From contig DATGGQ010000030.1 of assembly GCA_035308445.1 (NCBI GenBank), positions 52,598-116,597 of the forward strand: 64,000 nucleotides of DNA, read 5' to 3'. Positions 8,777 through 42,026 of the stretch are shown in pieces. The DNA is from Candidatus Limnocylindrales bacterium. GTDB taxonomy: Bacteria > Chloroflexota > Limnocylindria > Limnocylindrales > CSP1-4. How positions within the stretch are numbered: the stretch's first letter is position 1; each line of letters starts with the position of its first letter. A program made the translations under genes and the position numbers. The notes beneath the pieces were generated by a model. It was given only the letters and a program-made list of their open reading frames with translations. It was not told the DNA's origin and made no database searches.

Positions 8777-10005
8777 GCGGTTTCCGCGACCACCGCCTCG
8801 CGCCGACCGCCGCCGGCGCGCTGGACCACCAGCTCGGCCGTCGAGCCCTGGACGAACAGCGTGAACAACACGATGCCGAACGCGATCTCCTGGAGCAGGC
8901 CGCGCTGCGGCAGGTCGGCCGGCAGCGAGAGGGCCATCGCCACGGCGACCGCGCCCCGCAGCCCGGCCCAGAACAGGACATGGAGCCAGCCCAGCGGCAT
9001 GTGGCCGGTGCCGCGGGCCTGCCCGATCAGGCGCGACGCGCCGCCGAGCAGGCCGTAGACGACGACGGCCCGGCCGACGACGATCGCGACGACCCCCCAC
9101 GCGATCCAGGCGGCCGCCTGGACGAGCGCCGCGAGCGAGATCGCCAGACCTACGAGCAGGAACGCGAACGCGGTCAGCAGGAAGGCGATGAACTCCCAGA
9201 CCGTGTCGAGCGCCTCCCGGGTCCGCTCGCTCATCCCGACCCGGCGGCCGTAGCTGCCGATCACGATCCCCGAGGCCAGCGTGGCAATGACGCCGGACTG
9301 GTTGAGCCCGTCGGCGAGCAGGTACGTGCCATACGCCGCGACGAGGGACAGGCTCAGCTCGATCGGGTGGTCGTCGACGAGGGCCATGAGGCGCGTCGCG
9401 ACGAACCCGCCCGCGACGCCGATCGCCGTGCTGGCCAGGATGGCGACCGCGAAGGCGCCCACCTCGTCGGCGAGCGTGACGCCGCCGGCCAGCGCCCGGA
9501 TCGAGATCGCGAAGATGACGAGGGCCGTTCCGTCGTTGAGCAGGCTCTCGCCCTCCACGACCGTCCGCAGCTCGGTCGGCGAGCCGAGCTGGCGGAACGT
9601 CGCGATGACGGCCACCGGGTCCGTCGCCGCGACGATCGAGCCCACGACGAATCCAAGGCCGAGGTCCAGGCCGGCGGCGACGTGGAGGACGACGGCCACG
9701 AACGCGGCGGTGACGACGACGCCGGGCACGGCCAGCAGGGCGACTCCGCCGAAGGATCGCCGCAGCTCGCCGAGATCAAGGCCGAGCGAGGCCTCGAACA
9801 CGAGGCCCGGCAGGAGGACGAGGAGCACCAGCTCGGGCGTCACCTGGAGCTGGGCCGGGCTCAGGTCGGCGGCCAAGAGGCCGACGAGGACGAGCGTCAC
9901 CGTGTACGGGATCGCGAGGCGCCGGACGACGATGGCCACGATCGCGGCGACCGCCACGAGGGCGACGAACAGGCGGATGGCGTCGAGCGTCGCGGCGCTG
10001 GTCAT
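8773..10005 (-). CDS. Na+/H+ antiporter, CPA1 family (NhaP-type)
   Basis: 410 aa with 10-12 TM helices. Motifs FEASLGLD, ATDPVAV, ESLLNDGTALV are typical of NhaP/CPA1 exchangers. Confidence 0.8.
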   Translation of the reverse strand: MTSAATLDAIRLFVALVAVAAIVAIVVRRLAIPYTVTLVLVGLLAADLSPAQLQVTPELVLLVLLPGLVFEASLGLDLGELRRSFGGVALLAVPGVVVTAAFVAVVLHVAAGLDLGLGFVVGSIVAATDPVAVIATFRQLGSPTELRTVVEGESLLNDGTALVIFAISIRALAGGVTLADEVGAFAVAILASTAIGVAGGFVATRLMALVDDHPIELSLSLVAAYGTYLLADGLNQSGVIATLASGIVIGSYGRRVGMSERTREALDTVWEFIAFLLTAFAFLLVGLAISLAALVQAAAWIAWGVVAIVVGRAVVVYGLLGGASRLIGQARGTGHMPLGWLHVLFWAGLRGAVAVAMALSLPADLPQRGLLQEIAFGIVLFTLFVQGSTAELVVQRAGGGRREAVVAETA

Positions 10006-19730: not shown

Positions 19731-20843
19731 CTACTCGGTGATCCGGCCGGTGGCGACCGGCTCGGGATCGGGTGACGCGATGGCCCGGACGAGGGTCCGG
19801 ACGCCCCCGGGCTCGCCCTCCAGCGCCGAGAACCCGCGGTCCTCCCGCTCCGGCATCCGCGTGGCCGGGACGTCCGCGGCGAGGGCAGCGGCGGCCTCGG
19901 GCGTGAACGGGCCGTCCAGCCAGCGCGTCAGGAACAGGCCGATGGCCCGCCGGTACGAGGGGAACTCGAAGAGCCAGCTGTGGTGGCCGCCCGGGATCGT
20001 GAGCGCCTCGATCGGCAGGGCCGCTGGATCGTCGCCTCGCGCTCGGCGGGCGATCGCGACCAGCCGGTCCTGGTGCCCCGGCGGGACCACGCGATCGTCG
20101 CTGCCGTTGATGAGGAGCACCGGGCCCCGGTACTGGGCGATCGCTCGGGCCGCCGACACGGCCGACACCCGGTGCCCGCGCGGCTGCAGGAACACTTGCG
20201 TGGTGAGCCACGCCAGCGGGTAGGCGATGACATTCGGGATCGGGAGGCTGGCGAGGTGAAACGTCTGGCGAGTCAACCGGTAGGGGTCGGCCGGCGAGGC
20301 GATCGCCACGACGGCCCGAACGCGCGGCTCGGCCGCCGCGGCGAGCAGCGCCCCGATCGCGCCCATCGAGTGACCCAGGACCCCGACCGCCGACACGTCC
20401 GGCCGGTCGAGCAGCCAGCGGACGCCGGCCAGGCTGTCCGCGCCGAACTCGCCGGCGGTGAGCGGCAGGACCTCGCCTGGGTTCTCGCCGTGGCCGCGGA
20501 CGTCGATGGTCAGGACGTGCATCCCGATCCGGCGGAGGATCAGCGCGTTCGGCAGCGTCCTGTCGCGCGCCGACTCCCAGCCGTGGACGAGCAGCACGGC
20601 CGGCCGCGGGGCATCGGCGCCCTCGGCCGGGATCCACCAGCCAGGCAGCGTTCGGCCCTCGACCGTCGGCACGTCGACGCGGGTGAATGGCAGGCCGAGG
20701 CTCGATGGGTCGGACTCGGGGAGGTGCCGTCGCGGGTACCCGGCCCGGGCGCGGTAGGCATGCGCGAACCGCCACGCCCCGAGCGGGATGAGGCCGATCG
20801 CCGCGGTGATGCCGGCCCGGCGGCCGGTGATCCGGGAAGCCAC
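19731..20843 (-). CDS. Alpha/beta-hydrolase (S9/BAAT-like esterase or peptidase), membrane-anchored
   Basis: Nucleophile elbow GHSMG. Catalytic Asp/His region (NGSDDRVV...GGHHS). N-terminal TM segment. Start placed at GTG 20841-20843, because the upstream part of the ORF overlaps the divergent DnaJ gene. The start is uncertain. Confidence 0.7.
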   Translation of the reverse strand: MASRITGRRAGITAAIGLIPLGAWRFAHAYRARAGYPRRHLPESDPSSLGLPFTRVDVPTVEGRTLPGWWIPAEGADAPRPAVLLVHGWESARDRTLPNALILRRIGMHVLTIDVRGHGENPGEVLPLTAGEFGADSLAGVRWLLDRPDVSAVGVLGHSMGAIGALLAAAAEPRVRAVVAIASPADPYRLTRQTFHLASLPIPNVIAYPLAWLTTQVFLQPRGHRVSAVSAARAIAQYRGPVLLINGSDDRVVPPGHQDRLVAIARRARGDDPAALPIEALTIPGGHHSWLFEFPSYRRAIGLFLTRWLDGPFTPEAAAALAADVPATRMPEREDRGFSALEGEPGGVRTLVRAIASPDPEPVATGRITE

Positions 20844-20904
20844 GACGTAAGGGGACGCCGGGCCGGGGAGGCTGTCAAGCGAGGCCCGTCGATACACTTC
20901 CCTC

Positions 20905-21573
20905 GTGCCGAAATGGGATCCCCATGACGTCCTCGGAGTGCCCCGGAATGCCTCGCAGGCCACGATCAAGGCCGCCTGGCGCAAGCTGGCCCGGGAGCAT
21001 CACCCCGACCTGACCGGCGGCGACTCGCAGGCAGCGCGGGCGGCAACACGACGGATGGCCGAGATCAACCAGGCCTACGAGCAGCTGCGGATCGGCCGGC
21101 TGGGGCAGGGGAACGGGACCGAGGCTGCGGCGACCAGGCGGCGCTGGCCGCCGGCCGAGAAGCCGACGCGGCCGGTCACCGGCCGGCTGGACACCTCGGG
21201 CACCTTCCGCCCGCGGAACACGACGACCGGACCGGCCCATCGCCCGGCCGGCCGCCCGCCGATCCGCGTCGACCGCCTCGATCGCGAGCCGCTCCGCGCC
21301 TCCCATCCGACCGGCCCGCTGAATCGGTCGCGCCAGCGCAACTTCAGCCCGCCGCCGCCGCCGAGCCTCGACGACGCCCTCGCCCTGACGATCGCATTCG
21401 GCAAGTTCCACGGTCACACGCTCGGGGAGATCGCCAGCTTCGAGCCCTCGTACATCGACTGGCTGGCCCGGACGATCGCCCGTGACCCGGAGCTCGTCGC
21501 GGCCGCCCGCGTCGTCCAGGAGGACCTCGACCGGCGCAGCGTCGCTCGCCGGCCGCGGCCGGTCGGAGCCTGA
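20905..21573 (+). CDS. J-domain (DnaJ-like) protein
   Basis: N-terminal J domain with HPD motif ([32 protein letters not shown]). The rest is low-complexity. GTG start. Confidence 0.65.
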
Positions 21574-21575
21574 CC

Positions 21576-22211
21576 ATCCGAGCGCGTCGGGCGGTCGTCG
21601 CCGCCCTGCTCGGGCTGCTCGTCGCTGCCTGCGCCGGTGGTGGCGCCGGGGCGACGTTCTCGACCTCCGGCCCTTGCCTCGCCGACGGGCGGGCGCCCGG
21701 GGCGTTCCCGGCCCTCGAGGCGCTGGCGCCAACCTCGCTGTCCGGCACCCCGCCGACGTCCGTCGACTCCGGGCGGAACTGCTCGGACGCGGCGCTCGGG
21801 ACGCTCGTCGAGCGCGGGGTCCGGGAGCTGGACTTCGGTGGCGCGACCTGGGACTACGGCCACGGCGCGGGCACCTCGATCGCGGTGCTCGCGCTGCCGT
21901 CGGGGCAGCTGCCCCTGGCCTGGACCGAGGAGTTCTATCTCGCCGGCGCGATCAACGGGACGAAGACCGACAACGTCAAGTCGTCGCATCCCAAGGTCCC
22001 GGGGGTGGCCGACGCCTTCCGGATCGATGCCCTGAACGACGACTCGCAGCAGGCGATCGTGGTCTGGCAGGCCGGGGACGACGTCCGCGTGGTGATCGTC
22101 GCGAGCCCGATCGGCCCGACGGCCTCGATGGCCGAGCACGATGCGCGGGTCGCGGCCGCGATCCAGGCTGCCTTGCAGGCCTCGGGGATTCCGGTACCGT
22201 CGCCGTCATGA
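21576..22211 (+). CDS. Lipoprotein, hypothetical; apparent non-canonical ATC start
   Basis: The frame is open from 21486. A perfect lipoprotein signal (I)[18 protein letters not shown] begins at ATC 21576, which lies 8 nt after GGAG. There is no ATG/GTG/TTG upstream of the signal peptide in this frame. The C-terminus is coupled to the mutase gene by ATGA overlap. Confidence 0.5.
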
Positions 22212-23896
22212 CGGACCGCGACTCCTGGCAGGAGCGCCGCCGGGCCTGGAAGGTCGAGCGCCTCGACCTCGCGCTGGCCCGCTCGCCCGAGCGGGCGAAG
22301 CGCTTCGCGACCCTCGGCGAGATCGAGCTCGATTCGCTCTACGGGCCGTGGTCCTGGCCGGCCGACTTCGATCCGCTCCGCGACGTCGGCCTGCCCGGCG
22401 AGCCGCCGTTCACCCGCGGCATCCACCCGTCCGGCTACCGCAGCCGCCTCTGGACGATGCGGATGTTCGCCGGGTTCGGCGCGGCCGAGGACACGAACGC
22501 CCGGTTCAAGTCGCTGCTGGCCGCGGGCCAGACGGGGCTGTCCATCGCCTATGACATGCCGACGCTCTACGGCTACGACACCGACCAGCCGGAGGCCGAG
22601 GGCGAGTTCGGGACCTGCGGCGTCGCGGTCTCGTCCCTGGCCGACATGGAGGTCCTGCTGGCCGGCCTGCCGCTCGACGGTGTCTCCACGTCGATGACGA
22701 TCAACTCGCCGGCCGCCCCGATCTGGGCGATGTACATCGTCGCGGCCGAGAAGGCCGGGTTCCCGCGCTCAACCCTCGAGGGCACGACCCAGAACGACAT
22801 CCTCAAGGAGTTCGTCGCCCAGAAGGAGTTCCTGTTCCCGCCCGAGCCGTCGATGCGCCTCGTCACGGACACGATCGAGTTCGGGACGCGGGAGCTGCCG
22901 CGCTGGAACACGATCTCGATCTCGGGCTACCACATCCGCGAGGCCGGCTCGACGGCGGTCCAGGAGCTGGCATTCACGATCGCCGACGGGATGGCCTACG
23001 TCGAGGACGCCCTGGCCCGGGGGCTGCGGGTCGACGACTTCGCGCCACGCCTGAGCTTCTTCTTCAACTCCCACAGCGACTTCTTCGAGGAGATCGCGAA
23101 GTACCGGGCGGCTCGGCGGGTCTGGTTCAAGCTCATGAGCGAGCGCTACCACGCGGAGAACGAGCGATCGACCTGGATGCGCTTCCACACCCAGACGGCC
23201 GGTGTCTCCCTGACCCCGCAGCAGCCCCTGAACAACCTGACGCGCGTCGCGATCCAGGCGCTGGCGGCGGTCCTCGGCGGCACGCAGTCGCTCCACACCG
23301 ACGCCTACGACGAGGCGCTCGCCGTGCCGACCGCCGGGGCCGCGCTGCTCGCCCTCCGGCAGCAGCAGATCCTCGCCGAGGAGACCGGCGTGACCGGCAC
23401 GATCGACCCGCTCGGCGGGTCGTGGTTCGTCGAGGCGCTGACGAACCAGGTCGAGCGCCAGGTCTGGCGGTACATCGACGAGATCGATCGCCGGGGCGGC
23501 ATGGTCAAGGCGATCGAGGAGGGCTATCCGCAGCGGGAGATCGCCGACTCGGCCTATCGCTTCCAGCGCGAGCTCGACGACGGCGAGCGCCGGATCGTCG
23601 GGGTCAACGCCTACCTCGACGACCGCGAGGAGACGACGGTGCCCGTGCTCGAGGTCCCGGCCGGCTCGCTCGAGGCCCAGCTGGGCCGCCTCGCCCGGAT
23701 CCGGCGCGAGCGGGATCCGGCCGCCGTCGAGGCGGCGCTGGCCGGCCTCCGGGACGCGGCGTCGAGGGCCGGCTCGTCGGAGACCAACCTGATGCCGCAC
23801 TTCCTGCGCTGCGCGGCCGCCTACGCGACGCTCGGGGAGCAGTGCGGCGTCCTTCGCGGTGTCTTCGGCGAGTACCGCGAGCCGGTCGCGGTCTAG
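22208..23896 (+). CDS. icmA: Acyl-CoA mutase large (catalytic) subunit, likely isobutyryl-CoA mutase IcmA, not methylmalonyl-CoA mutase
   Basis: 562-aa methylmalonyl-CoA-mutase-family TIM-barrel domain with no B12 domain. Substrate-specificity positions read RMFAGFG (Phe where methylmalonyl-CoA mutase has Tyr) and FVAQKEF (Gln where it has Arg). This is the isobutyryl-CoA mutase pattern. Confidence 0.8.
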
Positions 23897-23916: not shown

Positions 23917-24396
23917 ATGTACCTCAATGCGCTGGAGTTCCTCGAGGAGGAGCGCGAGGGCTGGCGGCCCTTCGAAGCCCTCCTCGACCTGAGCGACGAG
24001 CAGCTCGGGGTCGGCGTGTCCGGCCCGGACCGCTGGTCGGGGCGGGACCTGATGGCCCACCTCGTCCACTGGCAGGCCGGCTGCCTCGACGTCGCACGGG
24101 AGCTGGCCGTCGGTCCCCACAGCCCGACGAAGGAGCGTCAGGATCGCGAGTGGGACGAGCGCGCCGACGCCATCAACGACGAGATCACGGTCGAGTGGGC
24201 CAAGCTCCCGATGTCCGAGGTCCGGCGTCGGTTCGAGACGACGCCCGGGGAGCTCCGCGGCTACCTGACGGTCGTGCCCGAGACGCGCTGGCTCAAGCAC
24301 GCCGACTACCTGGCGTACTTCCTGAACGAGACCACCGACCACTACGCCGACCACACGGCCGATCTCGAGGTGATCCTCGAGGCCGCCCGGTCGTGA
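23917..24396 (+). CDS. DinB_2 / mycothiol-maleylpyruvate-isomerase N-terminal-like domain protein
   Basis: GGAGGG RBS 7 nt before the ATG. Motif DLMAHLVHWQ. 159 aa. Paralog of 32210..32671. Confidence 0.6.
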   Translation: MYLNALEFLEEEREGWRPFEALLDLSDEQLGVGVSGPDRWSGRDLMAHLVHWQAGCLDVARELAVGPHSPTKERQDREWDERADAINDEITVEWAKLPMSEVRRRFETTPGELRGYLTVVPETRWLKHADYLAYFLNETTDHYADHTADLEVILEAARS

Positions 24397-24742: not shown

Positions 24743-26113
24743 ATGCCCGCCTACGACGCCTTCGATCGCTACGTCGCCGACCACCTCGCTGCCTGGACCG
24801 GGGAGCTCGCCGAGTTCTGCGCGATCCCGTCCGAGGCCACGGACCCGGCGGCGCTCGAGGCCGCGGCGGACTGGGTCGCGGCGCGCTACCGGCGCCTCGG
24901 TCACGGGACCACCGTCGACCTCGTCACGAACCGGGGGGACCCGCCGCTCGTCGTTGCCGAGATCGGATCCGGGCGGACGGTCGTCGCGCTCCAGCACTAC
25001 GACGTCCAGCCCGCCTCGCCGTGGCATCTCTGGACGACGCCGCCCTACCAGCCCGACGTGCGGGACGGGCGCCTGTATGCGCGCGGGGCATGCGACAACA
25101 AGGGCGAGCTCATGGCCCGGATCTGGGGGCTCGAGGCCTACCTGGCCACCGTCGGCGAGCTGCCATGCCGGGTCCGATTCCTGACCCAGGGCCAGGAGGA
25201 GGGCGGCGGCGACTCGTTCCCGCGGCTCCTGGCGATGCGGCCCGGGAGCCTCGAGGGCGACGCCGCCCTGAGCGAGGGCGGCGGGCTCGACGTCGAGGGC
25301 CGGCCCGTGGTCTTCGCCGGCGTCAGGGGCATGGTCACGGTCGAGCTGGTCTGCCGGACGATCGCGTATGACGCCCACTCGAGCCTCGCGAACCTGCTGC
25401 CGAGCGCGCCGATCCGGATGGTGCAGGCCCTCTCGACGTTCTGGGACGCCGAGGGTGTCCCGGCCATCGAGGGCCTCAAGGCGCAGGTCCGACCGCCGAC
25501 GTCGGCCCAGCTCGCCGTCCTCGAATCGGCCCCGGCCGGCGCGCTGGAGGCCGAGCTGATGCCGGAGTTCAAGGTCGATCGGTTCGTCGCCGGCCGCACC
25601 GGCCAGGCGGCTGTTCGCGCGCTGGCCCTCGATCCGACCGTGAACGTTCAGGGCCTCTGGTCGGGCTACACGGGTCCTGGCGGGAACACGATCACGCCGG
25701 CCGAGGCCCATGCCCGGGTGGACATCCGGCTCGTGCCCGACATGGATCCCGAGACGACGGTGGCGACGCTGCGGCGGCACCTCGAGCGCCACGGATTCGG
25801 CGATCTCGAGGTCGTCGAGAACGACGATCGCTACCGCGCCTGGTGGACGACGCCGGACCACCCGCTCATCCAGGCGTCGGCCCGTGCGTCCGAGGCCGCG
25901 ACGGGCAAGCGGGCGGTGCTGCAGGTGTCCGCCGCCGGCACGGAGCCGATGTGGGACGTGGCCGCCGCGCACGAGCTGCCGATGTCGACGATCGGGGCGA
26001 CCGACCCGGACATCCGCGTCCACGCGCCGGACGAGAGCTACAGCCTCGACAACGCCGCGACCGCGGCCCGGATGTTCGGCCGCTTCCTCGACGAGTTCGC
26101 CGCGCTGGACTAG
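24743..26113 (+). CDS. M20-family metallopeptidase (dipeptidase / ArgE-DapE-CPG2 type)
   Basis: Metal-binding blocks HYDVQP, GACDNKG, QEEGG and the dimerisation domain are present. 456 aa. Confidence 0.85.
   Translation: MPAYDAFDRYVADHLAAWTGELAEFCAIPSEATDPAALEAAADWVAARYRRLGHGTTVDLVTNRGDPPLVVAEIGSGRTVVALQHYDVQPASPWHLWTTPPYQPDVRDGRLYARGACDNKGELMARIWGLEAYLATVGELPCRVRFLTQGQEEGGGDSFPRLLAMRPGSLEGDAALSEGGGLDVEGRPVVFAGVRGMVTVELVCRTIAYDAHSSLANLLPSAPIRMVQALSTFWDAEGVPAIEGLKAQVRPPTSAQLAVLESAPAGALEAELMPEFKVDRFVAGRTGQAAVRALALDPTVNVQGLWSGYTGPGGNTITPAEAHARVDIRLVPDMDPETTVATLRRHLERHGFGDLEVVENDDRYRAWWTTPDHPLIQASARASEAATGKRAVLQVSAAGTEPMWDVAAAHELPMSTIGATDPDIRVHAPDESYSLDNAATAARMFGRFLDEFAALD

Positions 26114-41951: not shown

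Positions 41952-42026
<75 letters not shown>

Follow-up and report, generated by a model that had tools for sequence, protein, structure and literature searches.

Initiation at near-cognate codons is established in bacteria, and ATC is listed in translation table 11. Confirmed natural cases are very few, namely the E. coli genes infC, encoding IF3, and pcnB, both of which start at AUU (Hecht et al., 10.1101/063800). In E. coli reporters, AUC and CUG each initiate at about 1-2% of AUG, and the AUC-initiated protein carries an N-terminal Met (10.1101/063800). In S. meliloti, Ribo-seq coverage centers on the ATC that starts an upstream open reading frame (uORF) ahead of hfq, with weak reporter expression (PMC13285730), and start-site profiling work counts AUC among the usable start codons (10.1101/520783). 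A second described system is translational coupling. It works efficiently only where the two genes overlap or lie very close together, needs no more of the upstream gene than its last 15 nt, and most often takes the form of an NTGA overlap (PMC10666635). Here we describe a lipoprotein gene at positions 21576-22211 of a 64,000-nucleotide stretch of DNA (the window) from the metagenome-assembled genome (MAG) of a Candidatus Limnocylindrales, an uncultured soil bacterium. The gene lacks a canonical start codon and is probably initiated at an ATC lying 2 nt past the stop codon of the gene before it.

The locus resembles infC and pcnB in having a natural, conserved near-cognate AUH start with a Shine-Dalgarno (SD) sequence, so that a weak initiator stands in place of AUG, GUG or UUG. 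It differs from them in that the codon is AUC rather than AUU, the product is a predicted exported lipoprotein rather than a translation or RNA factor, and the proposed start sits 2 nt past an upstream stop; unlike infC, it shows no sign of IF3-type autoregulation. The parallel with the E. coli reporters and the hfq uORF lies in AUC being decodable by initiator tRNA and, in S. meliloti, in ribosome coverage centering on a natural ATC. Those cases, however, concern artificial constructs or a short uORF whose role is unclear; here ATC is proposed as the only start that a whole clade has for a conserved gene of 211 codons. Termination-reinitiation at -4/-1 overlaps (ATGA, GTGA, TGATG) likewise involves genes on the same strand, a stop and a start within a few nucleotides, and signals carried by the last 15 nt of the upstream gene, and orthologues in this family use classic GTGA, ATGA or TTGA overlaps. 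In contrast, the proposed restart codon of the window is non-canonical and lies downstream of the stop without overlapping it, and the coupling is presumed. We found no literature on start codons in Limnocylindria or on an ATC-initiated lipoprotein. We regard the case as a further, conserved instance of something already known; it is not an artefact, nor does it call for a new mechanism.

A lipoprotein gene without a canonical start codon

The frame is closed upstream by an in-frame TGA at 21483-85 and stays open from 21486 to the TGA at 22209-11, with a lipoprotein signal running from ATC 21576, all as an earlier note on this DNA had described. Scanning this frame from 21486, we found no ATG, GTG or TTG before the GTG at 21885. 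The earlier note was therefore right that no canonical start is available, but it overlooked an in-frame CTG at 21570-72. A run of 103 codons free of ATG, GTG and TTG is in itself unremarkable, as such codons number only about 2 per 100 family-wide. The run is nevertheless a real anomaly here because the stretch is demonstrably coding, both by its conserved residues and by its G+C content (GC) at codon positions. GC at positions 1/2/3 of 21576-21884 is 0.74/0.68/0.92, matching the rest of the gene, and third-position GC (GC3) across the gene is 0.92-0.93 with the frame intact and no frameshifts or stops. In the same frame over the upstream gene (21486-21569) the values are 0.93/0.96/0.57, as in non-coding sequence.

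The encoded N-terminus has a positively charged n-region within its first seven residues (M-RARR from the ATC or M-TIRARR from the CTG), followed by an uncharged hydrophobic stretch and a lipobox whose Cys falls at position 19 or 21, respectively. Using a regular-expression version of PROSITE PS51257 as the lipoprotein rule, we found that peptides started at the junction pass in the window and in 10 of 10 related start-less lineages; peptides started at the ATC pass in the window and in all nine other ATC lineages that have no usable canonical start. A twin-arginine translocation signal was considered and rejected: the window reads RR-A-V-V, which is twin-arginine-like, but the RR is not conserved in relatives.

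A protein search returned 260 homologues (best E value 9.1e-87), none of them named, and those with an organism name belong to MAGs of Limnocylindrales or other Chloroflexota. Conservation was taken from a 21-sequence protein alignment, which has 48 invariant columns. The lipobox Cys (alignment Cys21) is invariant in 21/21 sequences, and C21, F30, G34, C36 and other invariant residues are encoded upstream of GTG 21885, where the best-conserved residues of the family are found.

Public annotation treats the gene differently. The three proteins of this region are GenBank HLX35147-49 (Candidatus Limnocylindrales MAG), and HLX35148.1 is a 108-aa 'hypothetical protein' that begins at GTG 21885. Were this call correct, the product would be a small cytoplasmic protein. 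GTG 21885 is the first canonical start of the frame and is what gene callers choose, but starting there deletes the signal peptide, as the earlier note had stated, together with about half of a single compact domain (residues 40-204 modelled) and the most conserved segment of the protein. There is also no SD before it, and all canonical-start orthologues begin upstream of the signal peptide; none starts at the downstream GTG. We regard the annotated start as highly improbable.

The same kind of call recurs among orthologues. Many, among them P0014, P0015, P0018, P0021, P0024, P0028, P0033, P0051 and P0061, are called from within or after the signal peptide, for example P0014 as 'MLVGCG...', P0018 as 'MDGRAPG...', P0051 as 'MCLVDGR...' and P0061 as 'MTGPCLV...'. 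Gene callers have truncated them because no canonical start could yield the signal peptide, so that the family looks cytoplasmic and shorter than it really is. We conclude that 21576-22211 is an intact and presumably functional lipoprotein gene.

The start-less state in related lineages

To compare start sites we drew on genome, metagenome, ENA and Logan assemblies for 94 related loci, mapped in each the lipobox Cys, the upstream stop and every candidate start, and compared the junctions after anchoring the loci on the stop of the upstream gene, which encodes a J-domain protein (J gene) and precedes the lipoprotein gene in related loci too. For P0001 and P0008 gene coordinates alone were used; for P0003 both coordinates and the called protein sequence were used. 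Besides the window, ten lineages have no canonical start that could serve the signal peptide (L027, L082, L001, L087/88, L034/90-92, L028, L036/37/93, L094, L003 and L089). They share 55-72% identity with the window protein and come from NCBI, JGI, ENA and Logan assemblies. Canonical codons in these ten lie only in the hydrophobic core, and the resulting peptides fail the PS51257-type rule.

These observations bear on two explanations that the earlier note had offered beside AUC-type initiation. The first is a base-call or assembly error, the true codon being ATG or the true overlap GTGA, in an otherwise ordinary gene. A single substitution would restore a canonical start, and the source is a MAG. 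However, a 384-kb IMG contig carries the same three proteins, identical save for how the first residue is written, with the lipoprotein likewise called at the GTG as 108 aa. The ten further lineages, from four data sources, have the same start-less state, and no orthologue has ATG at the ATC position. With 11 distinct lineages, the window included, in independent assemblies, an error is exceedingly improbable.

The second is a decaying gene, in which the start codon has been lost and the frame is a pseudogene or untranslated. It would fit the missing canonical start and the absence of an assigned function or a Pfam or NCBIfam family. The reading frame has no frameshifts or stops, though, and its GC3 of 0.92 is maintained; the lineages share the signal peptide, the lipobox, the predicted fold and 48 invariant columns; the start-less state has outlasted divergence to about 55-60% identity; and the downstream mutase gene is coupled through ATGA. 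Decay is thus very unlikely. It is very likely, in our judgement, that translation starts at a non-canonical codon within 21570-21578.

ATC and CTG as candidate initiators

In the window the J gene and the lipoprotein gene are on the same strand, with the stop TGA at 21571-73, the ATC beginning 2 nt after it and the CTG overlapping the J gene by 4 nt. Across lineages, the junction reads NTGA-C[GC]-ATC in 12 and TGA-C-ATC in two (L082 and L003), and the ATC is kept 1-2 nt past the stop in 14 of the 15 lineages of this junction type. The codon after it varies (CGA, CAC, CGT, ACG, CGG, GCC, CTT, CGC or CCG). The coordinates of P0001 and P0008 fit the standard 2-nt spacer, in frame, and the called protein of P0003 reads L-T-I-R across the junction.

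The rival to AUC is initiation at the CUG, in which ribosomes ending the J gene would move back by 1 nt to reinitiate, as at ATGA or GTGA, with the ATC as codon 3 (Ile). The CTG of the window is in frame, gives an equally valid signal peptide, and occupies the position of the GTG or TTG of four orthologues, whose called proteins begin V/M-T-I-R and whose junctions are GTGAC[CG]ATC in L083, L084 and L040 and TTGACGATC in L033. The NTGA overlap is also the commonest coupling geometry (PMC10666635), and in E. coli CUG and AUC are about equally good initiators.

Five lines of evidence favor the ATC over the CTG. First, the spacer in L082 and L003 is 1 nt shorter (CTGA-C-ATC), which puts the CTG out of frame and leaves the ATC as the sole in-frame near-cognate codon at the junction, and the lipoproteins of both stay intact. 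L082 lies in the immediate subclade of the window. Its CTG frame meets a TGA before the Cys, and its ATC-frame peptide IRLAGRHVSHVRA can be aligned with that of P0004 (EIRLVGGQVEGHVRA) starting at the Ile, which leaves no room for a compensating indel.

Second, the N of NTGA falls at the third, synonymous position of the last J-gene codon (GTN, GCN or GAC). Among ATC lineages it is C in the window, L027, L087, L001, L034, L028, L037 and L094, G in L083, L084 and L040, and T in L033. Such free variation, with C the commonest state, would be surprising at the first base of a start codon. Third is the retention of the ATC itself beside a next codon that varies widely.

Fourth, every ATC lineage has a purine-rich SD-like run (GGAG, GAGG, GGGG or AGG) 6-8 nt ahead of the ATC, with duplex energies of -3.8 to -9.6 kcal/mol against a generic anti-SD, our measure of SD strength. 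It arises from a changed penultimate J-gene codon (GGA, AGG or CAG instead of CCG or AGC). The mean energy is -6.4 kcal/mol in start-less ATC lineages and -6.2 in those with both NTG and ATC, versus -1.3 for canonical NTGA without ATC and -2.9 where a canonical start lies downstream; the run is weak or absent in most lineages without ATC (exceptions, L004 and L035). Across ATC lineages the element is 1-2 nt from the NTG, as in the window where GGAG is 1 nt from the CTG, and it cannot serve the NTG because this is too close. The earlier note had recognized the GGAG of the window correctly but gave its spacer to the ATC as 8 nt; it is 7.

Fifth, loci with N=C but without ATC always have another canonical start, with the single exception of L089. 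This start lies a few codons downstream in L004, L005, L006, L007, L042, L029 and L064, and forms an 8-nt overlap, GTGGCTGA or ATGCCTGA, in L002, L030, L039 and L058. The CTG is therefore never the sole candidate except in L089. The conserved unit at these junctions is, as the comparison indicates, the ATC together with the SD-like element.

A related arrangement is seen in L004 (positions ~2350-2440), which stands beside L003 in the tree ordering: GGGAG is kept, a CTG occupies the ATC position and an ATG follows six codons downstream. L004 may be an intermediate between two start solutions.

Several points weigh against initiation at the ATC. AUC is a poor initiator in the sole organism for which, to our knowledge, it has been measured. 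The SD-like element of the window spans just 4 nt, and this genome has many genes with no SD at all. The Ile is also retained in orthologues with a canonical NTG, so the conservation may be partly at the protein level, and the equivalence of the CTG to orthologous GTG and TTG starts, given above, counts on the same side. L003 may carry a compensating indel in its first few codons. Finally, L089, known from a single 1.2-kb Logan contig (positions ~530-620), has the junction CTGACGAGC, in which AGC replaces ATC and the CTG is kept. This locus lacks a canonical start and has more in-frame CTG and ATC codons downstream. Its start site may have shifted, the low-coverage contig may contain an error, or the copy may be dead. 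Taking both sides together, we consider ATC 21576 the probable start codon of this gene and initiation at the CUG unlikely, though a live alternative for this genome. The AUC-type initiation proposed in the earlier note thus gains support from the related loci.

Three other ideas were examined and rejected. A leaderless transcript beginning at the ATC finds no TANNNT box upstream of 21576, unlike in distant orthologues. Selection against internal canonical starts downstream of a weak start is not apparent: over the first 100 codons after the Cys, ATC loci average 1.7 in-frame ATG, GTG or TTG codons and the other groups 1.5-2.7. A genome-wide habit of non-canonical starts was rejected for the window, where a codon-position GC scan of all long open reading frames (ORFs) found no other gene whose first canonical start is preceded by coding-like sequence.

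A fusion of the J-domain protein and the lipoprotein by programmed frameshifting near 21570 would make use of the lipoprotein frame being open for 28 codons upstream of the CTG, overlapping the end of the J gene. But a signal peptide has to be N-terminal, the frame relation of the two genes differs in L082 and L003 from that in the other loci so that no single frameshift direction fits, and 21486-21569 has the codon-position GC of non-coding sequence in this frame. We give such a fusion almost no credence.

Table 1. Features of the lipoprotein locus, in positions of the window.
Feature	Position	Strand	Remarks
J-domain protein with ExoX-like C-terminal motif, 222 aa	20905..21573	+	Pfam DnaJ 9.1e-14, ExoX-like_C 8.2e-08; GenBank HLX35147.1 'J domain-containing protein'; TGA stop 21571-73
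SD-like GGAG	21565..21568	+	7 nt before ATC (21569-75); formed by the penultimate J-gene codon GGA; duplex -5.8 kcal/mol
In-frame near-cognate CTG, rival initiator	21570..21572	+	overlaps upstream TGA (cTGA); homologous to GTG/TTG starts of some orthologues
ATC, proposed initiation codon	21576..21578	+	2 nt past upstream stop; two codons after CTG
Lipoprotein signal peptide (predicted)	21576..21632	+	n-region RARR, h-region, lipobox VAA/C (cleavage at the slash); Cys codon TGC 21630-32
Full lipoprotein coding sequence (proposed start)	21576..22211	+	211 codons and stop; mature domain with predicted DcrB/PsbP/Mog1-like fold
First canonical in-frame start GTG	21885..21887	+	start in public annotation; 108-aa fragment without signal peptide
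Methylmalonyl-CoA mutase family large subunit, 562 aa	22208..23896	+	PF01642 1.4e-209; TIGR00641 7.6e-217; ATG overlaps lipoprotein stop as ATGA (22208-11)

Start architectures in the family

Within the family, expression is arranged in three ways. In 25 distinct loci that are more distantly related (L008-L012, L014-L018, L020, L021, L024, L026, L046, L050-L052, L054, L059, L062, L073, L075, L078 and L079) a -10 box of the TA[GC]GCT type (TAGGCT or TACGCT) lies 6-8 nt before the lipoprotein GTG or ATG, and all starts are canonical. This box accounts for the conserved 'R-Y-A' or 'R-*-A' in conceptual translations of the upstream region, and it suggests that these loci make a leaderless mRNA from their own promoter. 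Where the gene follows the J gene, it has a canonical NTGA overlap that lacks an SD, a new start placed further downstream, or the SD and ATC. The last state spans a clade diverged to about 60% protein identity and also occurs in L003, which is outside the clade; as read from this distribution, it is therefore long stable or has arisen more than once.

Elsewhere in the window, the genes at 10005 (-), 15964 (-), 37763 (+), 42845 (+) and 53659 (+) have a TANNNT box (TAGCAT, TAGTCT, TAGGAT or TATCAT) 6-9 nt before the start and no SD, which suggests that leaderless transcripts are frequent in this genome. Clear SDs are seen at a few window genes, such as the AGGAGG before ATG 53127 (-).

Predicted fold of the lipoprotein

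An AlphaFold (AF2) model was built from the same 21-sequence alignment. It has a predicted local distance difference test (pLDDT) of 87.8 and a predicted template modeling score (pTM) of 0.79, is confident from residue 40 on, and shows one compact alpha/beta domain with strands and helices over residues 40-204. The predicted model is alike at the fold level to DcrB/PsbP/Mog1, although no Pfam or NCBIfam match was found for the lipoprotein at E<=0.01, including DcrB (PF08786) and PsbP (PF01789). Envelope proteins of this fold, among them the DcrB lipoprotein, the PknH ectodomain, TiME and MTC28, share 8-17% identity with it, without a detectable sequence relationship. Unlike them, the present family is apparently restricted to Limnocylindria-like Chloroflexota and is fixed beside a B12-dependent mutase gene.

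Neighboring genes

Gene order is conserved in the window (19731-23896), in L082, L087 and L090 and on the contigs of P0001 and P0003: a divergent alpha/beta hydrolase, the J-domain/ExoX_C protein, the lipoprotein and the methylmalonyl-CoA mutase (MCM)-family mutase. The ATGA overlap of the lipoprotein gene with the mutase large subunit, which the earlier note had reported, recurs in 10 of the 12 related loci that had gene calls; the exceptions are L093, with a 1-nt overlap, and the contig of P0003, where the mutase is called about 200 nt later. For this fixed, seemingly coupled pairing of a predicted exported lipoprotein and a cytoplasmic B12-dependent mutase, a role in cobalamin handling would be pure speculation. 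The upstream protein has an unusual architecture, with an N-terminal J domain, a long Pro/Arg-rich linker and a short ExoX-like C-terminal motif (PF20600).

An 804-aa ORF that starts at a GTG (21482-23896, +) might be taken for a longer mutase. This ORF is an artefact: in DNA of about 74% G+C, the mutase frame simply remains free of stops upstream, and the first 242 codons of the ORF are an Arg/Ser/Pro-rich off-frame reading of the lipoprotein gene. No gene for a B12-binding small subunit or a MeaB-type GTPase was seen after the mutase among the next ORFs, which were read by eye, without a family search. Of the ORFs that follow (23920-24396 and 24743-26113, both +), the first begins MYLNALEFLEEEREGW and may be DinB-like, and the third, of 456 aa, may from its look be an M20-type peptidase. 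A 106-aa ORF lies between these two.

An Rfam search at gathering thresholds of the window and six orthologous loci for an upstream RNA element such as a cobalamin riboswitch found only two tRNAs. These, tRNA-Arg(TCT) at 786-862 and tRNA-Lys(CTT) at 41952-42026, are the only Rfam or ARAGORN matches of the window.

A possible route of expression

We infer from the sequence that AUC rather than CUG is decoded, that the lipoprotein gene is translationally coupled to the J gene, that its product is exported and lipidated, and that the start codon affects expression. The GGAG in the last J-gene codons would place the ribosomal P site on the AUC, which would be read by initiator tRNA as formylmethionine, and ribosomes finishing the J gene would probably reinitiate there, 2 nt past the UGA. 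With its signal peptide and lipobox, the product would be exported, lipid-modified on the Cys and cleaved, so that the DcrB/PsbP-like domain would sit on the membrane's outer face. Because the start codon is weak, little lipoprotein would be made. As no SD is evident before the mutase ATG, the ATGA overlap might pass this restriction on to mutase translation. Starts at AUC and CUG would yield the same mature protein because the signal peptide is removed after export, which may explain the freedom of the exact start to shift in evolution.

A further possibility, which we put forward with considerable doubt, is that an SD and an AUC 1-2 nt past the stop form a dedicated, efficient restart module at which post-termination ribosomes, kept in place by the SD, reinitiate with relaxed proofreading of the start codon; orthologues with GTG or TTG overlaps would then really start at the AUC too. 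If this were true, the family would be the first conserved natural AUC-initiated gene family in bacteria, and would point to a tolerance of near-cognate codons in termination-reinitiation great enough for such codons to be maintained through long evolutionary periods.

Significance

Natural bacterial genes with AUC as their only start are hardly documented. This one family offers three junction solutions, a canonical NTGA without SD, an SD with ATC and a new downstream start, and so provides a comparative system for how the loss of a start codon is compensated. The same family lets one ask whether reinitiating ribosomes accept near-cognate codons. For annotation, gene callers that admit only ATG, GTG and TTG truncate the protein, and an envelope lipoprotein is recorded as a small cytoplasmic hypothetical protein. 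The same truncation error probably affects other genes in high-GC uncultured lineages.

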